A stretch of 64,000 nucleotides of DNA from an uncultured Actinomycetes bacterium (GCA_947085535.1 CAMTWV010000002.1:94199-158198); one strand, 5' to 3'. Positions 8,825 through 56,851 are shown, counted from the stretch's first letter. Translations and numbers: made by a program. The notes: generated by a model not told the origin, from the sequence alone.

Positions 8825-10090
8825 CTAACCGACTGTCTTTGCAAGTGTTTTTTCATTTACTGGCCCAATAGCTACCAGCAACATTTTTTCAGGTTTAAAT
8901 AAAAGTTTAGCTATCCTTTGCACATCTTCAAGAGTAACTTTGTCAATACGTTTAACTATTTCATCGAGACTTAAAATTTCTCCCTGTGTTAATTCAGACT
9001 TACCTAATCTTATCATTCTGTTGTGCGTGCTTTCCAAACTCAGCACCAACTGTCCTTTTAAATGTTCACGAGCTATATTTAGTTCTTTTTCAGTTACCCC
9101 GTTCTCAGCAATATTCATTAGTTCGTTTTGAGTAATCTTTAAAACTTCTTCGACTTTTGATTTTCTTGTTCCTGCGTAGACAGCAAATAATCCTGAATCT
9201 GAGTATAGCGAATGGTAAGAGTAGACGGTATAGACAAGCCCTCTTTTTTCTCTTATTTCTTGAAATAGTCTGGAGCTCATTCCCCCGCCCAAAATGACAT
9301 CAAGGATAGCCAGAGTAAATCTATCAGCATGTTTAGCTGGAACAGCAGTAGTTCCGTAGCATATGTGGACTTGCTCTGTCTCCCGTGAATTGACAAGCAA
9401 TCCTTTTTTAGGTTTGGATTCAAGTTCCTGTCTTTTGGTTGATGCTAAAGGTGAAGGAGTTTTAGTTTTCGGAAAATGTTTGTTGATTAAATTAACAATG
9501 CTTCTTGTTTCAAGATTACCAGCGGCGGCAACAAGGATGTTTTCAGGAACATAATTCTCACTAAAAAACTCAGAGATATTTTCGCGGTTAAAAGATTTAA
9601 CCGTTTCAATTCTTCCAAGAATGTTTTTGCCCAAGGGGTGATTTTGAAAAAGCGTTGACGCAAAAAGGTCATGAATTAGCTCATCTGGTGTGTCTTCATG
9701 AAGATTTATTTCTTCCAGAACAACATTTTTTTCGGACTCGATGTCTTTTTTGTTTAGAAGTGGATTCTGGAGCATGTCTGCTAATACATCAACCGCAATG
9801 GGAAGATGCTTATCGTGAAAACGAGCATAATAACAGACATACTCTTTTGAAGAAAAGGCATTAATATCTGCCCCTAAAGACTCGAAGATTTCGGAAATGT
9901 CGCGAGATGAGTATTTTTTGGTTCCCTTAAATAGCATATGCTCAATGAAGTGTGAAATTCCTTCATGTTTGTCATTTTCATCTCGCGTGCCCACTTTTAT
10001 CCAGAAACCAAGAGCTATTGATCTCATGTGAGGCATGGGTTCGCTTAATATCTTAATGCCTGAATCAGAATATGAAAAAGTGAAAGACAT
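8825..10090 (-). CDS. M16-family (pitrilysin-like) zinc peptidase
   Basis: 421 aa with the inverted zinc motif HFIEH (HxxEH). It occupies the mlpA/ymxG position downstream of pnp. Confidence 0.9.
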   Translation of the reverse strand: MSFTFSYSDSGIKILSEPMPHMRSIALGFWIKVGTRDENDKHEGISHFIEHMLFKGTKKYSSRDISEIFESLGADINAFSSKEYVCYYARFHDKHLPIAVDVLADMLQNPLLNKKDIESEKNVVLEEINLHEDTPDELIHDLFASTLFQNHPLGKNILGRIETVKSFNRENISEFFSENYVPENILVAAAGNLETRSIVNLINKHFPKTKTPSPLASTKRQELESKPKKGLLVNSRETEQVHICYGTTAVPAKHADRFTLAILDVILGGGMSSRLFQEIREKRGLVYTVYSYHSLYSDSGLFAVYAGTRKSKVEEVLKITQNELMNIAENGVTEKELNIAREHLKGQLVLSLESTHNRMIRLGKSELTQGEILSLDEIVKRIDKVTLEDVQRIAKLLFKPEKMLLVAIGPVNEKTLAKTVG

Positions 10091-10099
10091 AGAGGTATC

Positions 10100-12196: not shown

Positions 12197-12229
12197 AAAA
12201 CCTCCATTTGTTTTGCGGAAACATGTTTA

Positions 12230-12499
12230 TTATCCGCGCAAACCTAATTTTTTAATTACATCATTGTATCTTTTAGGGTCGATTTTTTTGATGTAAGCCA
12301 AAAGACTTCTTCTCTGCCCCACCATTTTAAGTAATCCGTGTCTTGAGCTATTATCTTTTTTGTGGATTTTGAAGTGGCTGGCTAATTTGTCGATTTTTTT
12401 TGTGAGAATTGCAATTTGGACTTCTGGGGAACCAGTATCAGTTGTATGCAGCTTAAAATCGTTAATAATCTTTTCTTTTTCGTCCTTAGCTAAAGACAT
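12230..12499 (-). CDS. rpsO: 30S ribosomal protein S15
   Basis: 89 aa. [25 protein letters not shown] signature. Confidence 0.97.
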
Positions 12500-12603
12500 T
12501 TTTTCACCTCCCCTTTTTAATCCCGCTTACCAAGAATGCGTTGGTGATTCGCGATCCCAGTGAAACGGTGAAACAGCTTGTTGCCGCTCCATTGTAAAAA
12601 ATA
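12500..12603 (-). promoter_or_regulatory. rpsO 5' leader, locally GC-rich; possible S15 autoregulatory structure
   Basis: About 100 nt between the predicted -10 box and the GGAGGTG RBS. It contains tandem GTTTCAC x2 and small stems (CCAA..TTGG, TCGCGA palindrome). S15 translational autoregulation through its own leader is known in several phyla. I did not derive a fold. Confidence 0.3.
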
Positions 12604-12632
12604 ATGATACCATAGGTTGAAATTGATGTAAA
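12604..12632 (-). promoter_or_regulatory. Putative sigma-70 promoter of rpsO
   Basis: Minus strand reads TTTACA (12627-12632), a 17-nt spacer, then TGG-TATCAT (extended -10, 12604-12612). Confidence 0.4.
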
Positions 12633-12640
12633 ATTCAACC
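12615..12640. promoter_or_regulatory. Inverted repeat GGTTGAA-N12-TTCAACC spanning the rpsO -35 box
   Basis: Perfect 7-bp arms at 12615-12621 and 12634-12640. Candidate operator in the divergent control region. Confidence 0.35.
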
Positions 12641-12668
12641 AAAATAGACAAGAAAAAATAGACAAGAA
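12641..12668. promoter_or_regulatory. Perfect tandem 14-bp direct repeat (AAAATAGACAAGAA x2), candidate operator
   Basis: 12641-12654 and 12655-12668 are identical. The repeat lies 16 nt upstream of the -35 box of the cassette promoter. Confidence 0.45.
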
Positions 12669-12684
12669 ATTTTTGCTATCTTTA

Positions 12685-12713
12685 TTTACAAAATTGAGTT
12701 TATAAAATATATT
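12685..12713 (+). promoter_or_regulatory. Putative sigma-70 promoter of the HTH-ImmA-membrane cassette
   Basis: TTTACA (12685-12690), a 17-nt spacer, TATATT (12708-12713). AGGAGG RBS lies 6 nt before the ATG at 12753. Confidence 0.45.
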
Positions 12714-12752
12714 TAAAGTCAGTAACGAAATTAAATTAAAAGGAGGATTAAA

Positions 12753-13142
12753 ATGGCAAGTATTGACGAAAAGTTGAGATTTTTATTTACCACACATTTA
12801 AGCCCTGACGGAGATGAATACACCTACGAGGAAGTTGCTCAAGGAACCGGAGGTGTAATTTCACCAAGTTATGTCTGGAATCTCCGAAATGGGAAGAAGC
12901 TGAATCCAAGCCGGTCTAAGATGGAAATACTGGCAAAATTCTTCGATGTGTCACCTTCCTACTTCTTTGATGAGGAAGACGCTCTAAAGAAAAGCTTAAG
13001 CATTGATACAAGAATCGTGAGAGCAATTGAAGACCCAGTGGTAAGAGACATTGCTTTGCGGGCAATGGACTTAAGCGACAGAAACAAAGAGTTTATTTTA
13101 GCTATGGTTGATAAAGCGAAAGAGTTAGTTGAGGAAAAATAG
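12753..13142 (+). CDS. XRE-family HTH regulator with EspR-like architecture
   Basis: 129 aa. The pattern KLRFLFTT..PDG.EYTYEEVA....ISPSYVWNLRNGKKLNPSRSKMEILAKFFDVSPSYFFDEE plus a C-terminal helical block (VRDIALRAMDLSD..) parallels EspR as I remember it (RLNRLFDTV..PGRGPHTSAEV..MSAPYLSQLRSGNRTNPS..MAALANFF..AAYFTDDE). Confidence 0.8.
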   Translation: MASIDEKLRFLFTTHLSPDGDEYTYEEVAQGTGGVISPSYVWNLRNGKKLNPSRSKMEILAKFFDVSPSYFFDEEDALKKSLSIDTRIVRAIEDPVVRDIALRAMDLSDRNKEFILAMVDKAKELVEEK

Positions 13143-13660
13143 TGCTCAACCAGAGCAAGCTTAGAAAAAAGGTTAATAAATTGCTAAAAGAATTGAATTT
13201 TGAAGGAAGTTTTGATTCTTTTAGGTTTGTTGAGAAACTCGGGGAGCAATTAAACTTAAAGATAAAACTCCAATCTGTTCCCATGCCGCCCGGTTTTTTT
13301 GGCTTCTGGAGTTTAATCAATGACTGTCATGTCATTCTTTATCGGGCAAATACTTCTTGGTTTCATCAGCAACAAATTATCTTCCATGAATGCGGGCATA
13401 TTTGTTTAGGCCATCATTCAGGAAGCATTGAAAAGTTTTTAAAAAGAGAAATTCTCTACTCCGAGCCCGAGGAGCAAGAAGCAGAAACTTTTGCCACACT
13501 TCTTCTATGTAATGCTATAACTCAGGGATTGACTGAGCAAGGTATTTCTCTAAGCCAATATTATAACCAAAACAGTTCTTTTTACAACGAGTGTCCCCAG
13601 GATGTAATTTCAATGCAGGATTTTATGCTTCAATTAAAAGAAGTAATGGAAATGAGGTGA
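13142..13660 (+). CDS. ImmA/IrrE-family (COG2856) zinc metallopeptidase
   Basis: 172 aa. HExxH motif in FHECGHICLGHH and downstream EQEAETFA (the E.EA..FA motif of the family). The GTG start overlaps the upstream stop (TAGTG), implying translational coupling. Confidence 0.8.
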   Translation: MLNQSKLRKKVNKLLKELNFEGSFDSFRFVEKLGEQLNLKIKLQSVPMPPGFFGFWSLINDCHVILYRANTSWFHQQQIIFHECGHICLGHHSGSIEKFLKREILYSEPEEQEAETFATLLLCNAITQGLTEQGISLSQYYNQNSSFYNECPQDVISMQDFMLQLKEVMEMR

Positions 13661-13670
13661 GGTAACTCCC

Positions 13671-14960
13671 TTGCTTTATTACTTAGATTACCTTTTTCTT
13701 ATGCTCTTTTGGACTTGTACTTTGTATGCGCTTAAAGCTTATTATGTAAATCCACGTGATTCGAAGAATAAGCATGTTTTTTTGGTTTTTTTATTTGCTT
13801 CTATTGCTTTTACCTTTGCCGCACCCATTATTGCTCAAAAATTCAATAAGTTTTTGGGAATTAGCAGCATCAGTCGACCAATCGAGAATATCTCGAGCCT
13901 TATAGCTCTTTACTTTGGCTACCTTTTTTTTACGGATTTTGCTCCTAAAAAAAAGAAAAGAATTCCATGGCTTACTTTCTATCTTTTTTTGGTTACTGTA
14001 GCTCTAATTTCAATTTTTTCCCTGTTTTTGTCCAAACCTCAGCTTGAACCAATTTTTTTGGGTGAGGACACAAGAAATTTATCTGTTTTCATTTACAGTT
14101 TAGTTCTTCAGTCCCTTTTTCTCCCCCTTTTTGCTATTTATGCTTTAAATTTTTATAGATATGCTCGCCTGGTCAAAGAGCAAGCAACAAGAGTCAGACT
14201 TTATTCTTTATCGATAGGTTGTTTAATGGGCGCTTCGGGTCGCATTCTTGAACTCGTTTACTGGTTTGATATGCGGTATTTTGCTTATCTAAAGTTTTTC
14301 GGATTCTCTGCGGTTATTAGAATAATCAATTTATTTATGGTTTTATTTCTTTACGCTGGTTTTATAATGCCTGCTTTTTTAAGGAAAATTGTAGAGTCGT
14401 TTGGCGAACTGTTAGGATTGCGTCGAACTCGATATAATTTGATTTCCTTGCTTGCTTTAATTAACGACGCCCGTTCTTTTCTTCATTCTGATAATGAAAT
14501 GATTAATTATGTGCGGCGACTGTGCGAAAAATTTTTCTTAAGCTTAGAGGAGACAGCGCAGGCGGTAGAAAGTGCTCGGATAATTTCTGCTCTGGCTGGA
14601 AAAACAGATCAAAATTCAACTATGGAGTCTGCTCAGGTTTTTCATAGCGCTGCCAAGTATGCAGCGGCTGCCTTTGCTGAAGAAATTAAGTTTTATGACC
14701 AGGTTTATAAGAATATTTTGTATGCCAAGGAAAGGTATGACGGAAAGGATGCTATTTCTGACTTAAGTGGGGATAAATTACCAATGGGCTCACGCATTAT
14801 AAAAGTGGTTGATTGCTATTTCAATTCAAATCTTTTTCCCTTCGAAGCAGTCAAAGTTTTAAAGAAAGGTGCGAATAAAGAATTTGATCCCGAAGTAATA
14901 AAAGCTTTTATTGAAATACTCGAGGAAGAAAAAAACCTCAATCTCTTAAGATCTTCTTAG
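13671..14960 (+). CDS. Polytopic (~7 TM) membrane protein with a C-terminal degenerate HD-GYP-like domain
   Basis: 429 aa. TTG start 8 nt after GAGGTGAGG. About 7 hydrophobic helices in residues 1-236. The C-terminus AKERYDGKDAIS..LPMGSRIIKVVD..FDPEVIKAFIEIL aligns to the HD-GYP consensus HHERxDGxGYP..P.gaRI..vaD..FDP.lv.aF, but HD, HH and GYP are all substituted. Confidence 0.6.
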   Translation: MLYYLDYLFLMLFWTCTLYALKAYYVNPRDSKNKHVFLVFLFASIAFTFAAPIIAQKFNKFLGISSISRPIENISSLIALYFGYLFFTDFAPKKKKRIPWLTFYLFLVTVALISIFSLFLSKPQLEPIFLGEDTRNLSVFIYSLVLQSLFLPLFAIYALNFYRYARLVKEQATRVRLYSLSIGCLMGASGRILELVYWFDMRYFAYLKFFGFSAVIRIINLFMVLFLYAGFIMPAFLRKIVESFGELLGLRRTRYNLISLLALINDARSFLHSDNEMINYVRRLCEKFFLSLEETAQAVESARIISALAGKTDQNSTMESAQVFHSAAKYAAAAFAEEIKFYDQVYKNILYAKERYDGKDAISDLSGDKLPMGSRIIKVVDCYFNSNLFPFEAVKVLKKGANKEFDPEVIKAFIEILEEEKNLNLLRSS

Positions 14961-39975: not shown

Positions 39976-40035
39976 GTAAAGCTGAGCTATGTCGCTATGT
40001 CGAGAGACGATTGAAATAAAGAAGGCGGATAAAAA

Positions 40036-40266
40036 TCAATCGATAATTTCAACAATTGCTCTTTTGTTTTCTTTAGCTGCGGCAGCTCCCACAATTACTC
40101 TAAGGGCTTTAGCTATCCTTCCCTCTTTACCGATTACTTTACCAATGTCGTCGGGAGCAACTTTTAATTGCAAAATGACAGATTTCGCACCTTCTACTAT
40201 GCTAACATCAACTTCCTCGGGAGTGTCCACAAGCGCTCGGGCTAACGTCTCTAACAGTTCTTTCAA
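40036..40266 (-). CDS. ylqC: KH-domain RNA-binding protein (YlqC family)
   Basis: 76 aa. VIGKEGRIAKALR GxxG motif, at the conserved position after rpsP. Confidence 0.88.
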   Translation of the reverse strand: MKELLETLARALVDTPEEVDVSIVEGAKSVILQLKVAPDDIGKVIGKEGRIAKALRVIVGAAAAKENKRAIVEIID

Positions 40267-40320
40267 CTCAGCACCTCCTATTCTTTCTCAACGGGTTTCG
40301 CTTTGGTTGACGCCTTGGAT

Positions 40321-40677
40321 TTAGACGGTTTTTTTTGCCTCAACAGTCTTTTTTGCTGGAGCTTTTTTAGCGGTAACTTTTTCTTCTGGCAACTTTTCTT
40401 TTGACTCTACTTTCTTTTCTACTTTTTTTGTAGGAAGAGCTATATTTGCAATTTTAAGCAGCTTTTCCACTGTATTAGTAGGTTTCGCTCCTTGCGAAAG
40501 CCATAATAACGCTCTTTCTTCATCCATTTTCACAAAGGAGGGTTCTTGCCTCGGATCATATTGACCAATGATTTCGATAAATCTACCATCTCTCGGCATC
40601 CGAGAATCTGCTATAACAACACGGTAAAATGGCTTATTCTTGCTGCCCCCTCTGCTTAATCTGATTTTGACTGCCAA
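40321..40677 (-). CDS. rpsP: 30S ribosomal protein S16 with a Lys/Ala/Glu-rich C-terminal tail
   Basis: [22 protein letters not shown]-terminus. The last ~37 aa are the low-complexity K/E/A tail. Confidence 0.95.
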
Positions 40678-46523: not shown

Positions 46524-47237
46524 TTATTTAATTATTTTTAAAGCTTTTAAGACTTCTTTAGCAGCTAACTGTTCAGCCTTCTTTTTACTGCCTGCTTTTC
46601 CCTGTTTTTTTATTTTCGAACCTATGTTTACCTCGACATGGTAAAGTCTATTATGTGGCGGACCTAATTCTGAAATAACTTTATATTCAGGCATAAGCTT
46701 AAATCTTTGAACAGCTTCTTCTTGCAGGGTTGTTTTAAAATCAAAAAACTTATTTTCGCTTGAAAGTTTTTCAATAACTTCGCCAAAGAGTTTTGTTAGA
46801 AACTTCTCCGCTTTCCTTAAACCCTGGTCGAGAAAGATAGCGCCAATAATAGCTTCAAAACAACCACTTAATATTGAAATATTTTCTTTAACCCCAGCGA
46901 GCTCAACACCCTTTCCGGTTTGCACAAAATTTTCCAGATTTAACTTTAGAGCTAATTCGTACAATGTCTCCGAGTTGACTGCTGCTGCTCGCAGTTTGGA
47001 CAGTTCACCCTCATTATAACTGGGGAATCTCGTGTAGATAAACTTGGTTATAGCAAAGTTAAGTACAGAATCCCCTAAAAACTCAAGTCTTTCATAGTTG
47101 TTAATTTTATCTTTAGACTCGAAAACAAACGAACGGTGTGTCAAAGCATTAGATAGAAGAGTTTTATCTTTAAATGAAACATTCAGAGCTTTTTCGGCTT
47201 GCTTAAGCAATTCAATTGAGATCATTTTTTTAATCAA
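46524..47237 (-). CDS. rnc: Ribonuclease III
   Basis: 237 aa. ERLEFLGDSVL signature and a C-terminal dsRBD. Confidence 0.95.
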   Translation of the reverse strand: MIKKMISIELLKQAEKALNVSFKDKTLLSNALTHRSFVFESKDKINNYERLEFLGDSVLNFAITKFIYTRFPSYNEGELSKLRAAAVNSETLYELALKLNLENFVQTGKGVELAGVKENISILSGCFEAIIGAIFLDQGLRKAEKFLTKLFGEVIEKLSSENKFFDFKTTLQEEAVQRFKLMPEYKVISELGPPHNRLYHVEVNIGSKIKKQGKAGSKKKAEQLAAKEVLKALKIIK

Positions 47238-48468
47238 GTTGGCGAATGATTATTGCTGCGTTATGACCACCAAAACCAAAAGAGTTAGACATCGCGCACT
47301 TAATCTCTTTCTTAACTGCTTTGTTTGGCACATAATTGAGATCACACAAGGGGTCGGGATATTCAAGATTTATTGTGGGTGGAACAATCCCATTTTTAAT
47401 TACCAGCGCGCAGGCTATCAATTCAAAAGCACCTGCCGCACCCAGAGCATGGCCAGTCATTGATTTAGTCGAGCTTACTAAAAGCTTATAAGCGTGGTCT
47501 CCAAATATATTTTTGATAGCCATTGTTTCAAACTCGTCATTGTATTGCGTGGAAGTTCCATGAGCATTTATATAATCGATATCTTCAGCTATAAGTCCTA
47601 CTTCATCAAGAGCCTGTTGTATAGCACGAGCAGCACCTTCGCCATCCGGAGAAGGTGAGGTTATGTGATAAGCATCGCCCGTTGCCCCGTAACCAACAAT
47701 TTCACCATAGATATGAGCGTCACGAGAAAGTGCGCTTTCTAAAGTTTCCAAAATTAAAATCCCTGCGCCCTCAGCAATAACAAAACCATCACGCTTGGTA
47801 TCAAAAGGACGACTGGCTTTTTGAGGCTCATCATTTCGAGTTGAGAGTGCTCTTGCCGCACAAAAACCAGCTACTCCTAACGGGGTAACCCCGGCCTCTG
47901 TACCACCTGTAATGCAGATATCAATGGCACCTCGTTTAATGGCTTCAAAAGCTTCCCCGATTGCATGGGTGCCGGAAGCACAAGCAGTGACTGTACAAAG
48001 ATTGATACCCTTTGCGCCCGTAGATATTGAGACATAACCGGCAGCCAAATCGCAAATCATCATGGGTACAAGGAAGGGGCTGACACGCTTAACTCCCTTT
48101 TCGAGTAAGATTTTGTGCTGGGCTTCGAGGGTACCCAGTCCACCGATACCCGAGCCAATAATAACACCTGTCTCATTGGCAATTTCGGGTGTTATTTTTA
48201 ATTTTGCGTCTTCTAAAGCTAATTGGGCGGCTGCCACGGCAAAATGACAGAAGCGGTCCATTCTTCTAATCTCGCGTTCGTCAATGAAGTTTTTAGGCTC
48301 AAAGTCTCTAACCTCACCGGCAATTTGGGATGGATATTCAGAAGCATCAAACAAGGAAATCTTATCAATTCCAGATTTTCCTTCTACCAAAGATTGCCAG
48401 TAAGTATCTTTTCCGATGCCAATTGGGGTAATTGGACCAATGCCTGTAACGACTACTCTTCGATTCAA
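47230..48468 (-). CDS. fabF: 3-oxoacyl-ACP synthase II
   Basis: 412 aa. Active-site Cys in ACASGTHAIG, His-His motifs, C-terminal GFGGHN. Confidence 0.95.
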   Translation of the reverse strand: MNRRVVVTGIGPITPIGIGKDTYWQSLVEGKSGIDKISLFDASEYPSQIAGEVRDFEPKNFIDEREIRRMDRFCHFAVAAAQLALEDAKLKITPEIANETGVIIGSGIGGLGTLEAQHKILLEKGVKRVSPFLVPMMICDLAAGYVSISTGAKGINLCTVTACASGTHAIGEAFEAIKRGAIDICITGGTEAGVTPLGVAGFCAARALSTRNDEPQKASRPFDTKRDGFVIAEGAGILILETLESALSRDAHIYGEIVGYGATGDAYHITSPSPDGEGAARAIQQALDEVGLIAEDIDYINAHGTSTQYNDEFETMAIKNIFGDHAYKLLVSSTKSMTGHALGAAGAFELIACALVIKNGIVPPTINLEYPDPLCDLNYVPNKAVKKEIKCAMSNSFGFGGHNAAIIIRQLD

Positions 48469-49445
48469 TTTCTACCCATCCTTGAAGCCGCTTCATTAAA
48501 CTCGTTAATTAAATTCGCCATTATTTCCTTAACAGAAAGAACTTCTTTAATCTCAGACACTCTTTCGCCAATGGTAAAGAGACCTTTTATTACGTCTCCT
48601 TGCTGGGCTTTTTCGAGAGCCTCGATTATGCAGTAGTTTTTCTTGCAATCCTGCAAACATTGGCGGCATCTGACAAGGGTATCTTTGCCAGGAATAGGAA
48701 CTTTCCCTTCCCTTAAGTTTTTAACAAATGTGCTTACGACTGCCCTAAAAGGCATTCCGACAGGACTTTCAATTATCGTAACATTTTCTTTTTCTGCTTC
48801 TAAACAAATCTTTTTCCATTCATCGGCGCCGCTTGCTTCTTTACTTAAAGAAAATCTTGTCCCCATCTGTACACCCTTAGCACCCAAACTTAGTGCTTTG
48901 GCTATGTCGAATCCGCCAATTATTCCGCCTGCAGCAATTAACGGTAACTTCACGCTATTTATAATCTCAGGCAATATGGAAAAGAGTGTTTTGTCTGTGC
49001 CAAGATGTCCGCCTGCCTCAAAACCTTCAATTATAATAGCGGGTGGATCAAATTTTTCTGCCAATTTAGCTGCTTTCAATGACGAAACAACAGGTAAAAA
49101 TGGTATGTTTGCTTCGCGACAACGTTTAAAGGCTTCGCGCGAAAACCCGGCGCCTGAAACCACCAAATCGACTTTTTCCCTGATTGAAGTCTCGAGAAGG
49201 TCGCTAAAGTTTTTTAGAGCCACCATGATATTCACGCCAATTATTCTGTCAGTTAACAAACGAGCCTCTCTGATATGTTTAGCAAGCTCATTGCTTTTTA
49301 ACCCTGAACCGGCTATTAACCCAATGCCTCCTTCATTAGCTACAGCAGCAGCAAGTGGTGCTAACGAAATTCTAACCGCCATACCTCCTTGTATAACTGG
49401 AAGTGGCGCTTCTAAATTTCCAATTTTTAAAGTAGGAAGTTTCAC
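48465..49445 (-). CDS. fabK: FabK-type enoyl-ACP reductase II / nitronate-monooxygenase-fold flavoprotein with a 4-Cys motif
   Basis: 326 aa. VIQGGMA, GGIGLI and AAGGI motifs of the NMO/FabK fold, placed inside the fab cluster. C260-x2-C263-x3-C267-x4-C272 motif near the C-terminus. Confidence 0.78.
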   Translation of the reverse strand: MKLPTLKIGNLEAPLPVIQGGMAVRISLAPLAAAVANEGGIGLIAGSGLKSNELAKHIREARLLTDRIIGVNIMVALKNFSDLLETSIREKVDLVVSGAGFSREAFKRCREANIPFLPVVSSLKAAKLAEKFDPPAIIIEGFEAGGHLGTDKTLFSILPEIINSVKLPLIAAGGIIGGFDIAKALSLGAKGVQMGTRFSLSKEASGADEWKKICLEAEKENVTIIESPVGMPFRAVVSTFVKNLREGKVPIPGKDTLVRCRQCLQDCKKNYCIIEALEKAQQGDVIKGLFTIGERVSEIKEVLSVKEIMANLINEFNEAASRMGRN

Positions 49446-49462: not shown

Positions 49463-49699
49463 CTATTGTTTTTTGCTTTCGATGTAATTAACAGCATCGC
49501 CAACGGTGACAATCTTTTCAGCATCTTCGTCAGAAATTTCGATGCCAAATGATTCCTCGAGAGCCATTACAAGCTCAACAATATCGAGCGAATCAGCACC
49601 AAGGTCGTCAACAAAGGCTGTTTTTTCAGTGACTTCACTTACCTCCACACTTAGTTGGTCAGCAATTATATCCTTTACTTTTTCAAAAATAGCCGACAT
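49463..49699 (-). CDS. acpP: Acyl carrier protein
   Basis: 78 aa. [11 protein letters not shown] phosphopantetheine attachment site. Confidence 0.97.
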
Positions 49700-49757: not shown

Positions 49758-50504
49758 TTAGGTAACCATTCCACCATCAATCTGAATGACCTGGCCTGTG
49801 ATATAGCCCGATTCATCAGAGGCAAGAAAAGCAACTAAATTTGCCACATCTTCGGGTTGACCAAATCTGCCAAGCGGAATTTGTTTATTTATAGCACTTC
49901 TTGTGTCCTCGGAAAGCTTTTGAGTCATTTCTGTTTCAATAAAACCAGGAGCTACAGCGTTAGCCCTGACTCCTCTTGAAGCCATTTCTCGAGCGATTGT
50001 CTTGGTTAAACCAATAACCCCGGCTTTTGAAGCCGAGTAATTTGCTTGGCCAGGGTTTCCAGTGATTCCAACAACAGAAGCTATGTTAATAATATTCCCG
50101 CTTCGCTGTTTCATCATATATTTACTCACTGCCTGACTGCAATTAAAGGTGCCTTTAAGATTAACAGTTAAAACAGCATCCCAATCTTCTTCTTTCATCC
50201 GAACAAGAAGATTGTCGCGAGTAATCCCGGCATTGTTAACGAGAATATCAATTTTACCAAACTTTTCAATTATGCTCTCGATAAGTGAATTTGCTTCATC
50301 GAGTTTCGCGACATTTGCTTTTATAAAAACAGCTTCGCTTCCCATCTTTTTTATTTGTTCGACCAGTTCTTGAGCTAACTCTTCATTTCTTATAGCATTT
50401 ACAACTATGTTTGCGCCTAACTCGGCTAATTTTAAGCAAATTGCTTTGCCAATTCCGCGAGCGCCTCCTGTAACGAGAACCACTCTACCAGTAAGTTCAG
50501 GCAT
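49758..50504 (-). CDS. fabG: 3-oxoacyl-ACP reductase
   Basis: 248 aa. SDR family, TGGARGIGKA and YSASKAG motifs. Confidence 0.93.
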   Translation of the reverse strand: MPELTGRVVLVTGGARGIGKAICLKLAELGANIVVNAIRNEELAQELVEQIKKMGSEAVFIKANVAKLDEANSLIESIIEKFGKIDILVNNAGITRDNLLVRMKEEDWDAVLTVNLKGTFNCSQAVSKYMMKQRSGNIINIASVVGITGNPGQANYSASKAGVIGLTKTIAREMASRGVRANAVAPGFIETEMTQKLSEDTRSAINKQIPLGRFGQPEDVANLVAFLASDESGYITGQVIQIDGGMVT

Positions 50505-50506
50505 TT

Positions 50507-51460
50507 TTAATACTCCTTTCTTAAAAAATCAATCGTTTTTTGAAGCGATTCGCTATCTTCAACATTTAAAATTGTACAATCAGTAGAAATTCTTTTCACT
50601 AAACCTGAAAGAATTTTACCGGGTCCTACTTCAATAAAGATATTAGCCATTTTAAGCATCTTGTTTACTGATTGCTGCCACTTAACAGAACCTGTAATTT
50701 GTTTTCTAAGAGTCTCTTTGATTGTCTCTGGCTCTACAGAAACCTCTGCCGTGTAGTTTGAGATAACAGGAATCCTTGCTTTCTTAAATAATGCCTTATC
50801 TAAAAATTCACCAAATTCGTTCTCAGCTTTTTTCATTAGTGGAGAATGAAAACCTCCACTAACTGCTAATTTTACTACACGTTTTGCTCCTGCTTCATTA
50901 AAAAATTTAATCGATTCGTTTATAACTTTTGATTCGCCTGACACAATTATCTGACCAGGAGAATTGTAATTAGCTATGGTGATAACACCCTCGTCTTTTA
51001 AAGACGCGGTAACTTTTTCAACTTTTTCTTCTTCGAGCCCTAAAACAGCAATCATTTCACCGTATTTTCCAGAAGTCGAGCTTGTTGCAGCTTTTTGCAT
51101 TAATTCTGCTCGCTTCATAACTAATTTTAAGCCATCATTGAAATTAAAGGCATCAGCCACAGCTAAAGCTGTGTATTCGCCAAGACTATGTCCTGCCATA
51201 ACCTCAGGAATTATACCTTCTTTAGCAAGAAGCATCCAGGCAGCAAAGCTAACTAAAAAAATGGCAGGCTGGGCATTTATAGTTTCAGTTAGTTTTTCAA
51301 TCGGTCCATTAAAGCATAACTCTTTTAAATCAAAGTTTAAAATTTCATTTGCCTGCAAAAACAAATCTTTAATCTCAGGATAATTTTTATATAAATCTAA
51401 TCCCATTCCCACATATTGTGAGCCCTGACCTGGAAATACTAAAGCAATTCCTTTTTTCAA
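50507..51460 (-). CDS. fabD: Malonyl-CoA:ACP transacylase
   Basis: 317 aa. FPGQGSQ and GHSLGEY motifs. Confidence 0.94.
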   Translation of the reverse strand: MKKGIALVFPGQGSQYVGMGLDLYKNYPEIKDLFLQANEILNFDLKELCFNGPIEKLTETINAQPAIFLVSFAAWMLLAKEGIIPEVMAGHSLGEYTALAVADAFNFNDGLKLVMKRAELMQKAATSSTSGKYGEMIAVLGLEEEKVEKVTASLKDEGVITIANYNSPGQIIVSGESKVINESIKFFNEAGAKRVVKLAVSGGFHSPLMKKAENEFGEFLDKALFKKARIPVISNYTAEVSVEPETIKETLRKQITGSVKWQQSVNKMLKMANIFIEVGPGKILSGLVKRISTDCTILNVEDSESLQKTIDFLRKEY

Positions 51461-52645
51461 CTAAGAACACCTTGTCTCTTTAAGTTTAGAAATTAAAACA
51501 GGGACGACCTCAAATAAATCGCCCACTATCCCATAATTGGCTACACTAAAGATAGGAGCATCTGGGTCTTTATTAATAGCCACAATTGTCTCTGATGTTT
51601 GCATGCCAGCTAAATGCTGAATTGCACCCGATATACCACAGGCGATGTATAATTTAGGACAAACTGTCTTTCCTGTTTGTCCAACTTGATGAGAGTAAGG
51701 TATCCACTCGGCGTCAACAGCTGCTCTTGAAGCACCAACTGCAGCGTTCAAAAGAGAGGCAAATTCCTTGATTAGTTTAAAATTATCAGCTTTCCCTAAA
51801 CCTCGACCGCCAGAAACGATAACATCTGCTTCCTCAAGTTTTACTTTCTCGGTTAAATCTTCGACAAAATTAAGGACATTTATTTTTGAAGAAAGATTTT
51901 TTGGTTCGAATTTAATAATTTCACCTTGCCGCGAACTTGAAAAGTCAAGCTTTTTCATTACACGAGGCCGAACAGTTGCCATTTGCGGTCTTTTATTAGG
52001 ACAAACAATTGTAGCCATGATGTTTCCACCGAAAGCCGGTCGGGTTTGAAGAAGTAATCTGTTTTTTAAATCAATTTCAAGTCCAGTGCAATCAGCAGTT
52101 AAACCTGTTTTTAAGATAGCAGCAATCTTGGGAGCAATTGATCTTCCAACAACTGTTGCTCCAAAAAGCACAGTCTCTGGCTTATATTGATTAATTAAAT
52201 CAACCATGACTTGTGCGTAGGCATCGTCAAGGTGATCTTTTAATAAGTCATCCTCAACAAGAAAAACCTTATCAGCTCCATGACCAATTAATTTGTCCGT
52301 TCCATCTTTTATGTTTTTCCCTAAAAGAACCGCTGCGAGATAAGTTCCTAACGAATCGGCTAACTTCCTTCCTTCCCCTAAAAGCTCATAAACAACAGAA
52401 GCAATATTTTTGTTTCTTTGCTCGGTAAAAACCCAAATTCCATTATACCCAGAGGTATCCTCAATTTTTCTTTTGTCTTCAATAACAATGGCATTAGACT
52501 TGCAAACCTCCACACAAGCTCCGCACAAGTTGCAATTTGCTTCAATAATTGCTTTTTTTTCAAATACTTTAATGGCTTGATAGGGACAGCTTTTTACACA
52601 GAGTTTGCAGCCATTACATTTTTCAAGAATTACCTTGATTGACAT
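51461..52645 (-). CDS. etfA: Electron transfer flavoprotein alpha subunit with an N-terminal 2x[4Fe-4S] ferredoxin domain
   Basis: 394 aa. CNGCKLCVKSCP and CNLCGACVEVCK cluster motifs in the first ~60 aa, then the EtfA core (SRAAVDAEW, QVGQTGK, YIACGISGAIQH). Confidence 0.9.
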   Translation of the reverse strand: MSIKVILEKCNGCKLCVKSCPYQAIKVFEKKAIIEANCNLCGACVEVCKSNAIVIEDKRKIEDTSGYNGIWVFTEQRNKNIASVVYELLGEGRKLADSLGTYLAAVLLGKNIKDGTDKLIGHGADKVFLVEDDLLKDHLDDAYAQVMVDLINQYKPETVLFGATVVGRSIAPKIAAILKTGLTADCTGLEIDLKNRLLLQTRPAFGGNIMATIVCPNKRPQMATVRPRVMKKLDFSSSRQGEIIKFEPKNLSSKINVLNFVEDLTEKVKLEEADVIVSGGRGLGKADNFKLIKEFASLLNAAVGASRAAVDAEWIPYSHQVGQTGKTVCPKLYIACGISGAIQHLAGMQTSETIVAINKDPDAPIFSVANYGIVGDLFEVVPVLISKLKETRCS

Positions 52646-52646
52646 T

Positions 52647-53432
52647 TTAAATTAACCTACCTTGTTTTAATTTATCAATTAAAGTGTCGACCTGAGTTTC
52701 TAAGTTACCTTGAAGCATTCCACCTTTTTGGTGTCTTTCAGGAGTAAAAATTTTAATCACCTGAGTGGGTGAACCGGCTAAACCAACTTTATCTTTTTTA
52801 GCGTCTATATCTTGATGGTTCCAAATGGTAACTTGGGCACTTTTTGCCTTCATCATTCCCTTGAGCGAAGGAAGACGGGGCTCATTTATTTCCTTAACTA
52901 CAGTAATTAGACCTGGAAGAGGCATTCCAATAACTTCATAACCTTCTTCAACCATTCTTTCAACCACAATCTTATTTTCATTAATTTCTTCAACTTTTTT
53001 AACAAAAGTGACATAGGGAATGGAAAGAAAATGAGCAAGCTCGGGACCAACTTGGCCAGTGTCACCATCCATAGTTTGTTTACCACAAATTATAAGGTCA
53101 AATGAACCGATTTTTTCGATGGTTTTAGAGAGAGTATATGAAGTTGCCAGAGTATCGGCACCCGCAAACGCTCTATCGCTCAAAAGTATGGCTTCATCTG
53201 CTCCTACTGTAAGAGCATCACGTAAAACTTGCTCGGCTTGAGGAGGTCCCATAGTAATTACGGTAACTTTCCCACCCACACGCTCTTTTAATCTAACTCC
53301 CTCTTCAAGAGCGTATGTGTCAAAAGGATTGATGATACTATCGACTCCCTGTCTTATGAGAGTATTTGTGTTAGGGTCAATTTTTACTTCGGTTGTTCCA
53401 GGAACTTGCTTAATGCAAACAATAATTTCCAT
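52647..53432 (-). CDS. etfB: Electron transfer flavoprotein beta subunit
   Basis: 261 aa. MEIIVCIKQVP N-terminus and LIICGKQTMDGDTGQVGP motif. Confidence 0.9.
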   Translation of the reverse strand: MEIIVCIKQVPGTTEVKIDPNTNTLIRQGVDSIINPFDTYALEEGVRLKERVGGKVTVITMGPPQAEQVLRDALTVGADEAILLSDRAFAGADTLATSYTLSKTIEKIGSFDLIICGKQTMDGDTGQVGPELAHFLSIPYVTFVKKVEEINENKIVVERMVEEGYEVIGMPLPGLITVVKEINEPRLPSLKGMMKAKSAQVTIWNHQDIDAKKDKVGLAGSPTQVIKIFTPERHQKGGMLQGNLETQVDTLIDKLKQGRLI

Positions 53433-53450
53433 TTTGACTTCCTTTGGTCA

Positions 53451-54611
53451 CTAATTTGCTGTCAGAGTGCTTTCTTTAATTAGCTGAAGCGCAATAACAT
53501 TTCTTTGAATTTGATTAGTGCCTTCATATATCTGAATAATTTTTGCATCCCGCATCATTTTTTCGACAGGATATTCTCGCATGTAACCATATCCACCAAA
53601 AATCTGAACAGCATCAACTGTTATTTTCATAGCCACATCGGAAGCAAAAACTTTTGCCATAGCCGAAATTTTAGAGACATCTTTTGCCCCTGCATCTATG
53701 GATTTTGCCACTTGGTAAACCAAAGCCCTCGCAGCTTCAATTTCTGTAGCCATATCAGCTAACATATGCTGAATAGCCTGAAAAGAAGAAATTGATTGGC
53801 CAAACTGCACTCGCTGACGGGAGTAATTCAAAGTAGCTTCGAGAGCACCCGCAGCTAATCCCACAGCTTGAGCACCTATGCCAGGACGCGTCACATCCAG
53901 TGTTTTCATAGCAACAATAAAGCCAAGTCCTTCTTTCCCGATTAAGTTTTCGGCCGGTATTTTACAATTTTCAAAAATAAGTTCTCTTGTGGCTGAAGCT
54001 CTGATACCAAGTTTTTTTTCTTTCTTGCCAAAAGAAAACCCAGGGATTCCTTTTTCAACAATAAAAGCACTCGCTCCACGAGCACCTTTGCTTTTGTCTG
54101 TTAAAGCAATAATTGTGTATATTTCGGCTTCTCCGCCATTAGTTATCCATTGCTTTGTTCCATTCAATATATAGTAATCGCCTTCGCGAACTGCGTTTGT
54201 TTGGATGCCACCAGCGTCGCTTCCTGCGTTTGCTTCCGTTAAACCAAATGCTGCTAATTTTGTTCCCTTAGCAACGTCAGGTAAGTACTTCTTTTTTTGC
54301 TCGTCAGAACCAAAAAGAAGAATGGGATAAGCTCCTAACGCGCTTGCCGCATAACTCACCGAAACACCGCAACAACCTCGGCTCAATTCTTCCATGACTA
54401 AACAATTCTCAAAACAGCCCATCCCGAAACCTCCATATTCTTCCGGGACGTATAAGCCAAATAAATCTGACTCGGCTAAAATTTTAAGTATTTCCCAGGG
54501 AAACTCTTCTTTCTCGTCGAGTTCGGCTCGCGCTGGGATTATTTTTTCTTCAGTAATTCTTCTTGCTAAATCCTTAATCATTCTTTGCTCATCAGTTAAG
54601 AAATAATCCAT
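53451..54611 (-). CDS. Acyl-CoA dehydrogenase (butyryl-CoA dehydrogenase-like)
   Basis: 386 aa. GLTEANAGSD, QWITNG and the C-terminal catalytic-Glu context IYEGTNQIQR. Confidence 0.9.
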   Translation of the reverse strand: MDYFLTDEQRMIKDLARRITEEKIIPARAELDEKEEFPWEILKILAESDLFGLYVPEEYGGFGMGCFENCLVMEELSRGCCGVSVSYAASALGAYPILLFGSDEQKKKYLPDVAKGTKLAAFGLTEANAGSDAGGIQTNAVREGDYYILNGTKQWITNGGEAEIYTIIALTDKSKGARGASAFIVEKGIPGFSFGKKEKKLGIRASATRELIFENCKIPAENLIGKEGLGFIVAMKTLDVTRPGIGAQAVGLAAGALEATLNYSRQRVQFGQSISSFQAIQHMLADMATEIEAARALVYQVAKSIDAGAKDVSKISAMAKVFASDVAMKITVDAVQIFGGYGYMREYPVEKMMRDAKIIQIYEGTNQIQRNVIALQLIKESTLTAN

Positions 54612-54626
54612 ACCTTTGACCCCTCT

Positions 54627-55646
54627 CTATTTAAAATTTTTATGCCATCTAATAACATTGGCTCCCCAAGTTAAACCTCCTCCAAATCCAACGGAAAGAA
54701 CAATATTGCCTTTTATTAGTTTTCCGGCTGCCCAGAGCTCGTAAAGAGCTATTGGGATGGAGGCCGAGGAAGTATTTCCATACTTATTAATATTACTGAC
54801 AACTTTTGAAGAGTCTATTTTTAATCTTTCGACTGCGACATCAATAATTCTCTGATTTGCCTGATGCGGGATTAAAAAATCAATATCTCCAACTTTCAAA
54901 TTTGCTTTTTTAAGTGCTATTTTAGCTGCACGAGGAAGCACTTTGACGGCAAATTTAAAAATTTCATTTCCGCTCATATGGATGTAATGTAAATTATTTT
55001 TAACTGTTTCACTGCTGGTTGGGAGCATTGCGCCACCAGCAGGGATTTTTAAAAGGTCGCCTCGAGTGCCATCTGCTGATAAGTAATTTGATAAAATACC
55101 GTAACCTGGCTCCACTTCTTGCAAAACAACTGCTCCAGCCCCATCGCCAAAAAGCACACAGGTATTTTTATCTTTCCAATTGACAAAACGAGTAATGGCT
55201 TCAGCGCCGATTAGAAGAACTGTTTTATAAGTGCCGGTGGCAACAAAGCTTGAAGCCACGGCTAAACCATAACTAAAACCTGTGCATGCAGCCTGTAAAT
55301 CAAAAGCAGGACAACCTTTGATACCCATTTTTTGCTGGGCAACACAAGCAGTTGAAGGAAAAATCATGTCAGGCGAACCAGTGGCAACAATAATCAACTC
55401 AACATCTTTAGGACTTACATTTGCATCTTCTAATGCTTTTAAACCAGCTTCAGCAGCTAAATCCGAAGTAGACAAATCATCGGCTATGATGTGTCTTTCT
55501 GATATCCCTGTTCGACTGCGTATCCACTCATCACTGGTTTCAACCATTTTTTCTAAATCATGGTTATTAAGTATTCTTTCCGGAATTGATACACCAATTC
55601 CTGTAATACCAACCGGAATTAAAATTAGATTTTTCATTTGCAACAT
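54627..55646 (-). CDS. fabH: 3-oxoacyl-ACP synthase III
   Basis: Active-site Cys in ACTGFSYGL, plus HQAN and GNTSSASIP motifs. An alternative start ATG at 55635-55637 gives MKNLIL. Confidence 0.93.
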   Translation of the reverse strand: MLQMKNLILIPVGITGIGVSIPERILNNHDLEKMVETSDEWIRSRTGISERHIIADDLSTSDLAAEAGLKALEDANVSPKDVELIIVATGSPDMIFPSTACVAQQKMGIKGCPAFDLQAACTGFSYGLAVASSFVATGTYKTVLLIGAEAITRFVNWKDKNTCVLFGDGAGAVVLQEVEPGYGILSNYLSADGTRGDLLKIPAGGAMLPTSSETVKNNLHYIHMSGNEIFKFAVKVLPRAAKIALKKANLKVGDIDFLIPHQANQRIIDVAVERLKIDSSKVVSNINKYGNTSSASIPIALYELWAAGKLIKGNIVLSVGFGGGLTWGANVIRWHKNFK

Positions 55647-55648
55647 CC

Positions 55649-56656
55649 TTAAGAACTTTTTAGAGATTCCTTAATTTCACCGATTAGGTTTTCCTGGATA
55701 GTTTTAGCGGCTACTTTTATGGCATTCTTTATTGCTTTGCTGCTTGAGCTTCCGTGACTGATGATGCAAACTCCGTCTACACCGAGAAGTTGTGCTCCGC
55801 CATACTCTTCATAATCGAGTTGTTTGATTAATTTTTTAAGTCCAGGTTTTAAAAGTAAAGCGCCGATTTTAGAAATCAATGACCCTTCAGCGGTTAATCT
55901 TATTTGCTTAAAAATGGTGCTGGCTAATCCTTCCATTAGCTTTAAAACAACATTTCCTGTAAAACCGTCACAAACACATATGTCAACTTTACCTTTAGGA
56001 ATATCGTTGCCTTCCACATTGCCAAAAAAGTTTAATTGTGATGCGGTGAGAAGTTTATGAGCAGCAACAGTAATTTCATTTCCTTTGCTTTTTTCTTCTC
56101 CAATACTTAAGAGTCCAACAGTCGGATTTTCAATGTTAAGAATTTTTTTAGCAAAAAGACTACCCATCTGGGCAAATCGTACTAAGTGTTCGGGTTTACA
56201 GTCAGCTGTAGCTCCAACATCTAAAATCACCACTGGTTTATAGGGTGTAGGAACAACAATGGCAATAGCCGGCCGCGAAATTCCTTTTATACGCCCATAA
56301 GTAAGCAAAGCTGCGCTGACCACAGCTCCTGTGTTTCCTGCAGAGAGAAAAGCGTGTACCTTACCTTCTTTTACCAATCTGGTACCGACAACAATAGATG
56401 AGTTGCTTTTTGAACGGACAGACCACGCTGCTTCTTCGCCCATTTCGATAACATCAGATGCTGTCTGAACTTCAAGATTTGGTAGTTTACTAAAGCGGTT
56501 TAGCTCTGCCTGAATAGCCGATAGTTCTCCAACTAAAATTACTTTTAAATTTTTTAACTCTAAAGCTGCCCTATGTGCACCTTTTACAATTTCGTGAGGC
56601 GCATGGTCGCCTCCCATAGCGTCTACAGCAATTATTAAATTATTTTCCTCTGGCAT
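55649..56656 (-). CDS. plsX: Phosphate acyltransferase PlsX
   Basis: 335 aa. IAVDAMGGDHAP N-terminus and GxxGNV motifs. Confidence 0.95.
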   Translation of the reverse strand: MPEENNLIIAVDAMGGDHAPHEIVKGAHRAALELKNLKVILVGELSAIQAELNRFSKLPNLEVQTASDVIEMGEEAAWSVRSKSNSSIVVGTRLVKEGKVHAFLSAGNTGAVVSAALLTYGRIKGISRPAIAIVVPTPYKPVVILDVGATADCKPEHLVRFAQMGSLFAKKILNIENPTVGLLSIGEEKSKGNEITVAAHKLLTASQLNFFGNVEGNDIPKGKVDICVCDGFTGNVVLKLMEGLASTIFKQIRLTAEGSLISKIGALLLKPGLKKLIKQLDYEEYGGAQLLGVDGVCIISHGSSSSKAIKNAIKVAAKTIQENLIGEIKESLKSS

Positions 56657-56674: not shown

Positions 56675-56851
56675 TTATTCAACCTCGATTACCTTTTTAC
56701 CATCATAATAACCGCAATTTGGACAAATATGATGTGGTAATTTTGACTGGTGACATTGAGGACAATTTGAAAGAGTAGGCTCGGTAGCACGCCAGTTTGC
56801 TCTTCGCTTATCTCTTCTTGCTTTAGATGTTTTTCTTTTTGGTACAGCCAT
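56675..56851 (-). CDS. rpmF: 50S ribosomal protein L32
   Basis: MAVPKRKTSKARRDKRR N-terminus and a CPQC...CPNCG zinc ribbon. The ATG at 56849-56851 has GGAAGGAG 8 nt upstream; the ORF-track TTG at 56869 is less likely. Confidence 0.95.
   Translation of the reverse strand: MAVPKRKTSKARRDKRRANWRATEPTLSNCPQCHQSKLPHHICPNCGYYDGKKVIEVE

Follow-up and report, generated by a model that had tools for sequence, protein, structure and literature searches.

An acyl-CoA dehydrogenase and a bifurcating-type Etf in the FabK position of an actinobacterial fatty acid synthesis operon: a candidate enoyl-ACP reductase

A 64,000-nucleotide stretch of DNA from an uncultured Actinomycetes bacterium (GCA_947085535.1, CAMTWV010000002.1:94199-158198; this whole stretch is referred to here as the window) contains a type II fatty acid synthesis (FAS II) operon in which three genes, coding for an acyl-CoA dehydrogenase family flavoprotein (ACAD) and the two subunits of an electron-transferring flavoprotein (Etf), are situated between fabH and fabD. 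In related operons that position is filled by the gene for FabK, an enoyl-acyl carrier protein (ACP) reductase (ENR), and we favor, on balance, the interpretation that ACAD-EtfBA acts in FabK's place as an Etf-dependent, probably bifurcating, enoyl-thioester reductase of FAS II, with enoyl-ACP as the most likely substrate. This reading is drawn from protein sequence comparisons and from gene order across a broad set of bacteria.

The bacterial ENRs are FabI, FabL, FabV and FabK, and they serve both as antibiotic targets and as annotation markers. In the open-access full-text literature that we searched, neither ACAD/Etf genes within fab operons nor an Etf-dependent ENR are described. In Pfam comparisons the ACAD and Etf proteins are not homologous to any known ENR family, and because they carry neither an SDR nor an NMO domain, the module, if it is an ENR, would represent a new structural class. 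That such a class, composed of an ACAD and a bifurcating, ferredoxin-fused EtfAB, occurs widely among energy-limited strict anaerobes from more than ten phyla, and reduces ferredoxin in every elongation cycle, is a more tentative proposal that could well be correct but that we stop short of calling probable. The machinery itself is, by its sequence features, of the known bifurcating Etf/ACAD kind with a CarE-type EtfA.

Organization of the fab operon

The operon is transcribed from the minus strand, and open reading frame (ORF) calls and their translations give the order rpmF-plsX-fabH-ACAD-etfB-etfA-fabD-fabG-acpP-NMO2-fabF-rnc, with the following features.

53451-54611, minus strand: ACAD, acyl-CoA dehydrogenase family flavoprotein, 386 aa; three ACAD Pfam domains
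52647-53432, minus strand: etfB, bifurcating-type small Etf subunit, 261 aa; PF01012 (ETF domain)
51461-52645, minus strand: etfA with an N-terminal ferredoxin domain, 394 aa; Fer4 dicluster, ETF and ETF_alpha domains
52466-52645, minus strand: 2x[4Fe-4S] ferredoxin domain of EtfA, residues 1-60; Fer4_7 match at residues 9-52, two CxxCxxCxxxC motifs
56675-56869, minus strand: rpmF (ribosomal protein L32), head of the cluster; ORF call, with homologues 5' of plsX in 41 related loci
55649-56656, minus strand: plsX, phosphate acyltransferase; TIGR00182, 375 bits (cut-off 243); 2 nt 5' of fabH
54627-55646, minus strand: fabH, beta-ketoacyl-ACP synthase III; TIGR00747, 425 bits (cut-off 292)
50507-51460, minus strand: fabD, malonyl-CoA:ACP transacylase; TIGR00128, 337 bits (cut-off 261); 0 nt past the etfA stop
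49758-50504, minus strand: fabG, 3-oxoacyl-ACP reductase; TIGR01830, 362 bits (cut-off 298)
49463-49699, minus strand: acpP, acyl carrier protein; TIGR00517, 112 bits (cut-off 70)
48465-49445, minus strand: NMO2, FabK-like NMO-family flavoprotein paralogue; PF03060, and TIGR03151 at 196 bits (cut-off 453)
47230-48468, minus strand: fabF, beta-ketoacyl-ACP synthase II; TIGR03150, 640 bits (cut-off 494); 4 nt overlap with NMO2
46524-47237, minus strand: rnc (RNase III); ORF call, 8 nt overlap with the end of fabF

The identities of the conventional genes are secure, as fabH, fabD, fabG, acpP, fabF and plsX all exceed equivalog or subfamily cut-offs in the Pfam and NCBIfam comparisons. A preliminary description of this DNA, made from the sequence alone, had reported three same-strand genes between fabH and fabD, and the ORF coordinates agree with it exactly: the gaps are 15 nt between fabH and ACAD, 18 nt between ACAD and etfB, 1 nt between etfB and etfA, and 0 nt between etfA and fabD. 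The motifs that it quoted, IYEGTNQIQ in the ACAD and CNGCKLCVKSCP and CNLCGACVEVCK in EtfA, are likewise all present in the translations. Its account of the inserted genes was therefore correct, but it overlooked the FabK-like NMO gene at 48465-49445; and its premise that fabH and fabD are canonically adjacent is valid for Proteobacteria, whereas the nearest relatives of the window hold fabK in that slot.

A consensus scan for terminator-like sites found none in the intergenic gaps of the 46-58 kb region, the total count being that expected from shuffled sequence, and rnc is likely to be the last gene of the transcription unit. Ribosomal_L32p and Ribonuclease_3 genes hold the same operon positions in five comparison loci (L084-L088). 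Three Logan contigs encode the identical ACAD protein and share the gene order. The closest named homologues of the ACAD are in Ca. Subteraquimicrobiales (91%), in other Actinomycetota metagenome-assembled genomes (MAGs), and in Ca. Oleimmundimicrobium, by which the window is assigned to the class Ca. Aquicultoria within the Actinomycetota.

Displacement of FabK by the ACAD/Etf module

Comparison with the nearest relatives shows what they carry between fabH and fabD. In Ca. Aquicultorales, a member of the same class as the window (L084), and in Desulfitobacterium (L086), the order is plsX-fabH-NMO1-fabD-fabG-acpP-NMO2-fabF-rnc, and a tblastn comparison gives the same gene order for a Coriobacteriaceae locus (L085). 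NMO1 is a bona fide FabK, scoring 488 bits in L084 and 539 bits in L086 against TIGR03151 (cut-off 453), while the NMO2 proteins of the same loci, at 211 and 218 bits, are below that cut-off. Ca. Oleimmundimicrobium (L087) and a further Actinomycetota locus (L088) have exactly the arrangement of the window, with ACAD-etfB-etfA replacing FabK, and their ACADs are 77% identical to the window ACAD.

The same alternation is seen in a metagenome scan in which NMO2 was used as the anchor for determining the state of the fabH/fabD slot. FabK occupies the slot in 16 operons, none of which carries an ACAD; the slot is empty in about 11 more, several of which are from human-gut assemblies; and ACAD-etfBA fills it in the window, in L087 and in L088. 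FabK and ACAD-Etf are together in none of the operons examined. Among 80 loci anchored on ACAD (described below) there is not a single canonical FabK, and NMO2 is present solely in L056, from Margulisiibacteriota. The ACAD/Etf module thus displaces a known enoyl-ACP reductase from its position without being its orthologue, and this same-slot displacement provides the strongest single argument that the module is a reductase.

Distribution and genomic context of the module

We have scanned one genome per GTDB species for the ACAD and examined the 80 best loci (70-77% identity) by tblastn with the window proteins. Because these loci were picked by ACAD identity, a comparison of the conservation of ACAD with that of its neighbors is biased, and we have not used the high ACAD identity as an argument for special constraint. 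FAS II genes adjoin ACAD, which lies inside or at the end of the FAS II operon, in 52 of the 80, and these 52 cover all but two of the approximately 15 lineages sampled. They include all 12 loci labeled Deltaproteobacteria, 4/4 from Thermodesulfobacteriota, 4/4 from Omnitrophota, 12 of the 31 from Nitrospirota, two Syntrophorhabdus-type loci, and single loci from Margulisiibacteriota, Riflemargulisbacteria, Saganbacteria, Ratteibacteria, Rokuibacteriota, Thermodesulfatator, Desulfovibrionales and a second member of the Actinomycetota. The two lineages with no FAS-linked ACAD are Bacillota (0/7) and a single Dissulfurispiraceae locus. The association of ACAD with FAS II therefore recurs in more than ten bacterial phyla, and the idea that the arrangement is peculiar to this genome can be discarded.

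The position of the module within these operons varies. ACAD, with or without etfB and etfA behind it, follows fabH in about 25 loci; it follows plsX in 11 loci in which the operon has no fabH; the module is 3' of fabF or rnc in 10; and ACAD-etfB-etfA precedes fabD in five. Four distinct insertion positions point to repeated selection for co-expression rather than to one inherited accident. ORFs inserted in the ACAD-bearing fab operons include no FabI-like or other ENR gene and no beta-oxidation gene; three have no Pfam match, one has a SEC-C motif only, and the others are DUF1189, PLD-like and URO-D-like proteins, a nucleotidyltransferase, a radical SAM protein, a GHMP kinase and one unrelated-looking SDR (in L080).

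Some individual loci have features of their own. Eight (L044, L045, L050, L052, L058, L064, L075 and L081, with ACAD at approximately 10001-11146) are organized as rpmF-plsX-ACAD-fabD-fabG-acpP-fabF; these are Syntrophorhabdus-type or other delta-proteobacterial loci with ACAD at the usual place of fabH, and with neither fabH nor etf in the locus. In L080 the operon ends with fabF-ACAD, and a radical SAM/SPASM protein, an SDR and a GHMP-kinase-like protein then follow (11174-14508), which may be a lipid-modification add-on.

Outside of FAS II operons the module has assorted neighbors. In the Nitrospirota non-FAS loci, ACAD follows hpt-, queD- and TldD/PmbA-like genes; we had considered the recurrent neighbors there (clusters c10, c12 and c13) as possible efp, accB and accC genes, but their representatives proved to be these hpt-, queD- and TldD/PmbA-like genes, and the further tie to FAS that we had supposed was abandoned. 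Three contexts are seen in Bacillota: Wood-Ljungdahl genes (folD, RACo and a corrinoid protein), prkA with spoVR, and kdsABCD with arg genes. A butyrate or beta-oxidation context, which we had entertained for the Bacillota loci, was accordingly rejected.

The preliminary description had also remarked that Bcd/EtfAB complexes normally cluster with the crt, hbd and thl genes of fermentation. Outside the fab cluster we annotated 20 window ORFs whose size might let them be mistaken for crt, hbd, thl, fabZ, fabI or acc genes, and neither these nor the other annotated parts of the window, nor any annotated ACAD neighborhood, contain crt, hbd or thiolase genes. Seventeen of the 20 have Pfam matches, and they are housekeeping genes (rpsB, uppS, cdsA, dxr, nusA, truB, ribF, dapAB, trmD and others), except that one codes for an HD-domain protein; three have no match.

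The Etf subunits are of the bifurcating type

Both Etf subunits match those of bifurcating complexes far above non-bifurcating ones. EtfB scores 264 bits with CarD, 253 with Acidaminococcus fermentans EtfB, 252 with LctB and 240 with Clostridium difficile EtfB, the range over the bifurcating set including 7KOE being 236-264 bits, as against 73-106 bits for non-bifurcating ETFs. In CarD and A. fermentans EtfB the counterpart of its motif GKQTMDGDTGQVGP is GRQAIDGDTAQVG (GKQxxDGDTxQVGP), such that a GxQxxDGDTxQVG segment is common to EtfB and the bifurcating Etfs; the bifurcating-type motif is present in all 40 of the EtfB proteins of related loci. At the sequence level EtfB belongs with the FAD/NADH-binding type and not the AMP-binding type, and it is predicted to be the site of beta-FAD and of NADH binding.

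EtfA contains the ETF domain and the alpha-FAD-binding domain II (PF01012 and PF00766) and aligns with CarE (6FAH_A) at 446 bits over residues 1-389, the ferredoxin domain included. Scores with bifurcating EtfAs that have no ferredoxin domain are 311-314 bits, and the overall range for bifurcating EtfAs is 296-446 bits; non-bifurcating proteins give at most 188 bits, the value for human ETF. The N-terminal domain aligns with CarE residues 1-60, and together with the Fer4_7 match and the two motifs this full-length alignment bears out the preliminary assignment of a CarE-type N-terminal 2x[4Fe-4S] domain. Both Fe-S motifs are kept in 35 of 39 EtfA ORFs of related loci. By its sequence features the Etf is therefore of the bifurcating type (group 2), and we propose that the ferredoxin domain is the exit path of the low-potential electron.

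The ACAD subunit

Among solved structures the best matches of the ACAD are the butyryl-CoA dehydrogenases (Bcd) of bifurcating complexes, 5OL2_C of C. difficile (421 bits) and 4L1F of A. fermentans (419 bits); a structure-sequence comparison gives 414-416 bits for actinobacterial ACADs and 329 bits for CarC. The catalytic glutamate is in the YEGT of IYEGTNQIQ, and YEGT is kept in 74 of the 78 members of a clade whose sequences are 70-77% identical across phyla. Its earlier characterization as Bcd-like is therefore appropriate. The Etf-contact residues Y340 and Y346 are conserved, and a tryptophan (in KQWITN) is at the position of Phe155 of 5OL2, a residue that bridges the two flavins for electron transfer (PMC5691135).

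The ACAD is nonetheless not a demonstrable Bcd, being below equivalog cut-offs and without a butyrate context. Its top NCBIfam model is AcrC, at 461 bits under a cut-off of 640, and the remaining models, which include the CoA-acting cyclohexane-1-carbonyl-CoA dehydrogenase and FadE, are further under theirs; NCBIfam thus gives no equivalog-level similarity to a characterized CoA-acting reductase or dehydrogenase. We propose that it is the catalytic (delta-FAD) subunit for enoyl thioester reduction.

We also note that the 90%-identity protein cluster of P0059, of which this ACAD is the representative, holds many FabG proteins of about 246 aa. This mixture hints at a fusion of ACAD with FabG, or at a read-through gene call, in some member of the collection; a fusion, if real, would be a Rosetta-stone link.

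A proposed mechanism and its significance

Reduction of an enoyl thioester by NADH is very exergonic, with potentials of -320 mV for NADH and about -10 mV for the enoyl/acyl couple. By analogy with Bcd/EtfAB and CarCDE, NADH would reduce the beta-FAD of EtfB, and this flavin would then bifurcate the electrons, sending one uphill through the two N-terminal [4Fe-4S] clusters of EtfA to ferredoxin or flavodoxin, and the other downhill, by way of the swinging alpha-FAD of EtfA, to the ACAD flavin. After two such rounds the ACAD would give a hydride to the C2=C3 bond of the trans-2-enoyl-ACP produced by FabZ, with FabF or PlsX then taking over the acyl-ACP product. In this way reduced ferredoxin would be regained at every round of elongation, and the large drop in potential from NADH to the enoyl group would not be lost. 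The predicted direction is the one in which bifurcating Bcd/Etf complexes run physiologically, from NADH to enoyl thioester and ferredoxin (PMC5691135). It is likewise a prediction that ACP rather than CoA is the carrier, that the enzyme would act at all chain lengths, and that the Etf bifurcates.

If this is correct, then the ACAD/Etf reductase would be an additional solution to the enoyl-ACP reduction step, unrelated to FabI, FabL, FabV and FabK, and the first case in which flavin-based electron bifurcation is part of an anabolic core pathway, extending the process from catabolism to biosynthesis. One low-potential electron pair would be saved per cycle, a real gain for organisms near the thermodynamic limit. 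If genomes with the module have no recognizable ENR, the scoring of fatty acid synthesis completeness in such MAGs would also change. A CRISPRi screen in Eubacterium limosum, in which Bcd of the Bcd-EtfAB cluster was reported to be essential in all growth conditions tested although butyrate formation was not (PMC9963998), is a possible, if tangential, indication that enzymes of the Bcd/Etf type may perform essential housekeeping functions.

Objections and alternative roles

Several observations weigh against the assignment of the module as an enoyl-ACP reductase. Ordinary actinobacterial ACADs resemble the window ACAD about as closely as Bcd proteins do, and we identified no ACP-docking signature in its sequence; basic segments that are conserved in the clade, such as FGKKExKLGIR, are common to Bcd as well. 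A Bcd-like pocket might fail to take C12-C18 chains. There is no FAS gene nearby in 28 of the 80 loci, including all seven from Bacillota and 19 of the 31 from Nitrospirota, and about a dozen FAS-linked operons have ACAD with no adjacent etf. The absence of ENRs from ACAD-bearing operons is weak evidence, because ENR genes often sit outside of fab operons. Finally, the window keeps the FabK-like NMO2, which in the approximately 11 operons with an empty slot is the sole ENR-like gene; NMO2 itself may be an ENR, in which case ACAD/Etf would be dispensable for the step here. The preliminary suggestion that an Etf-coupled reductase serves or replaces the ENR step is thus favored by the shared FabK slot and the lack of co-occurrence, but replacement is not forced in this genome, because NMO2 is retained.

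The activity could alternatively be CoA-specific, with a Bcd/EtfAB that reduces crotonyl-CoA or another short enoyl-CoA to butyryl-CoA or a similarly short acyl-CoA that serves as a FabH primer or as a bridge between CoA-level chain elongation and FAS II, the option of a bridge having been raised in the preliminary description. The closest solved structures are indeed genuine butyryl-CoA dehydrogenases of bifurcating complexes, the top NCBIfam models are CoA-acting, and ACAD is directly 3' of fabH, whose product is the only FAS II enzyme that takes acyl-CoA, in about 25 loci. We nevertheless regard this explanation as unlikely: the thiolase, hbd and crt genes needed for making crotonyl-CoA are found neither among the annotated parts of the window nor within the annotated neighborhoods, ACAD follows plsX with no fabH in 11 loci and fabF or rnc in 10, acetyl-CoA is already sufficient as a primer, and the alternation in one slot with FabK, which acts at the ACP level, is left unexplained. 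A role in the opposite direction also seems improbable. ACADs are natively dehydrogenases, and the module, which coexists in the window with the ENR-like NMO2, could oxidize acyl-ACP to trans-2-enoyl-ACP in a FabX-like backtracking reaction for anaerobic unsaturated fatty acid synthesis or lipid modification, with the Etf as acceptor and confurcation with reduced ferredoxin and NAD+. To our knowledge no anaerobic route to unsaturated fatty acids has been recognized in most of these phyla, which counts in favor of such a role. Helicobacter pylori FabX carries out a real acyl-ACP dehydrogenation within FAS II (PMC8626469). However, no isomerase partner is evident in the operons, a bifurcating Etf running in reverse would spend reduced ferredoxin on a step whose product FabZ supplies in every cycle, and FabK, with which the module alternates in this slot, is a reductase. 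That most ACAD-bearing operons are devoid of ENR-like genes is also a better fit to a reductase.

The simplest alternative is operon hitch-hiking, in which a Bcd/Etf of energy metabolism, unrelated to lipids, happened to land between fabH and fabD. The Bacillota ACADs (0/7 FAS-linked) and many of those in Nitrospirota do lie off FAS among unrelated housekeeping genes, and the remainder of the window carries generic housekeeping genes. But with 52/80 loci FAS-linked, four insertion positions, and the identical arrangement in L087 and L088, hitch-hiking, which was among the possibilities raised in the preliminary description, is very unlikely, because the FAS linkage is conserved across phyla and the module alternates with FabK in its slot.

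The NMO2 paralogue

NMO2 is always between acpP and fabF in the operons examined. Its best-matching structures are FabK proteins (154-166 bits), with FabX at 126 bits. It contains a C-x2-C-x3-C-x4-C motif in its C-terminal part that is present in 116 of its 120 closest homologues and is invariant in alignment A1, whereas the solved FabKs do not have the motif. We know of no description of this protein, which from its sequence may be an Fe-S-containing or second ENR, or a FabX-like enzyme. Elsewhere it is encoded at 9001-9981 in L084, 9001-9945 in L086 and 15197-16171 in L056.

Relationship to known systems

The module has much in common with the Bcd/EtfAB complexes of C. difficile (5OL2) and A. 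fermentans (4L1F, with EtfAB 4KPU), in which an ACAD and a bifurcating EtfB and EtfA are similarly encoded side by side, and whose catalytic glutamate and Etf-contact aromatic residues are kept in the window ACAD. It departs from them in that the ACAD belongs to a separate clade and is in a FAS II operon rather than with crt, hbd and thl, that EtfA has an extra ferredoxin domain, and that the proposed substrate is ACP-bound and of all chain lengths. The ferredoxin-fused EtfA is shared with CarCDE of Acetobacterium woodii (6FAH), and CarE and CarD are the best matches of EtfA and EtfB. The ACAD, in contrast, is closer to Bcd, with 421 bits as against 329 for CarC, and is not a CarC orthologue; the neighbors are fab genes only, with no caffeate-activation genes among them, and the context is lipid biosynthesis, whereas CarCDE functions in anaerobic respiration of phenylacrylates.

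FabK, an FMN- and NADH-dependent member of the NMO family, shares with the module the fabH-X-fabD slot, which it fills in Ca. Aquicultorales, Desulfitobacterium and 14 further metagenomic operons, and the reaction proposed for ACAD/Etf is identical to its own; but it is unrelated in fold and cofactors, is a single subunit, uses NADH directly, and has no ferredoxin output. FabX of H. pylori is a flavoenzyme with Fe-S chemistry whose substrates are ACP thioesters and whose place in FAS II is the enoyl/acyl step (PMC8626469), although it is oxidative and isomerizing, and neither an ACAD nor Etf-linked. Like NMO2 it is an NMO family protein with four conserved cysteines C-terminally, but their spacing (C300/C304/C308/C320) differs from that of the NMO2 motif. 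The ability of the ACAD fold to accept thioesters tethered to carrier proteins is illustrated by MbtN, RedW/PigA and the prolyl-ACP dehydrogenase 4IRN; these are nevertheless oxidative enzymes of secondary metabolism with no dedicated bifurcating Etf, and the similarity of the window ACAD to them is low, at 79 bits with MbtN (cut-off 700) and 278 bits with RedW (cut-off 650).

Other features of the window and related loci

In most of the related loci, including L087 and L088, a YceD/DUF177 gene is located 5' of rpmF. This gene is missing from the window, in which just 292 nt (56870-57161) separate rpmF from a 152-aa ORF (57162-57620); in contig L001, which has the same sequence, a 44-aa call is all that is present in this interval. 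Two extra genes at the head of the fab operon, between rpmF and plsX, are found in L084 (671-3829) and L085 (801-3972), one coding for an ADP-forming acetyl-CoA-synthetase-like protein of about 698 aa (CoA_binding/Succ_CoA_lig/ATP-grasp_5) and the other for a DRTGG-domain protein.

Upstream of recG-rsmD-coaD and the fab operon, the window contains fakA (Dak2/FakA-like, 534 aa) and a DegV/FakB gene (285 aa) on the minus strand (61083-63556), and because of the presence of these genes exogenous fatty acids can probably be fed into PlsX and FAS II. Plus-strand stretches are confined to two places: a single 111-aa ORF at 39989-40324, and 12753-14960, where two ORFs with no Pfam match (129 and 172 aa) are followed by a gene for a 429-aa protein with only a weak HD_5 domain.

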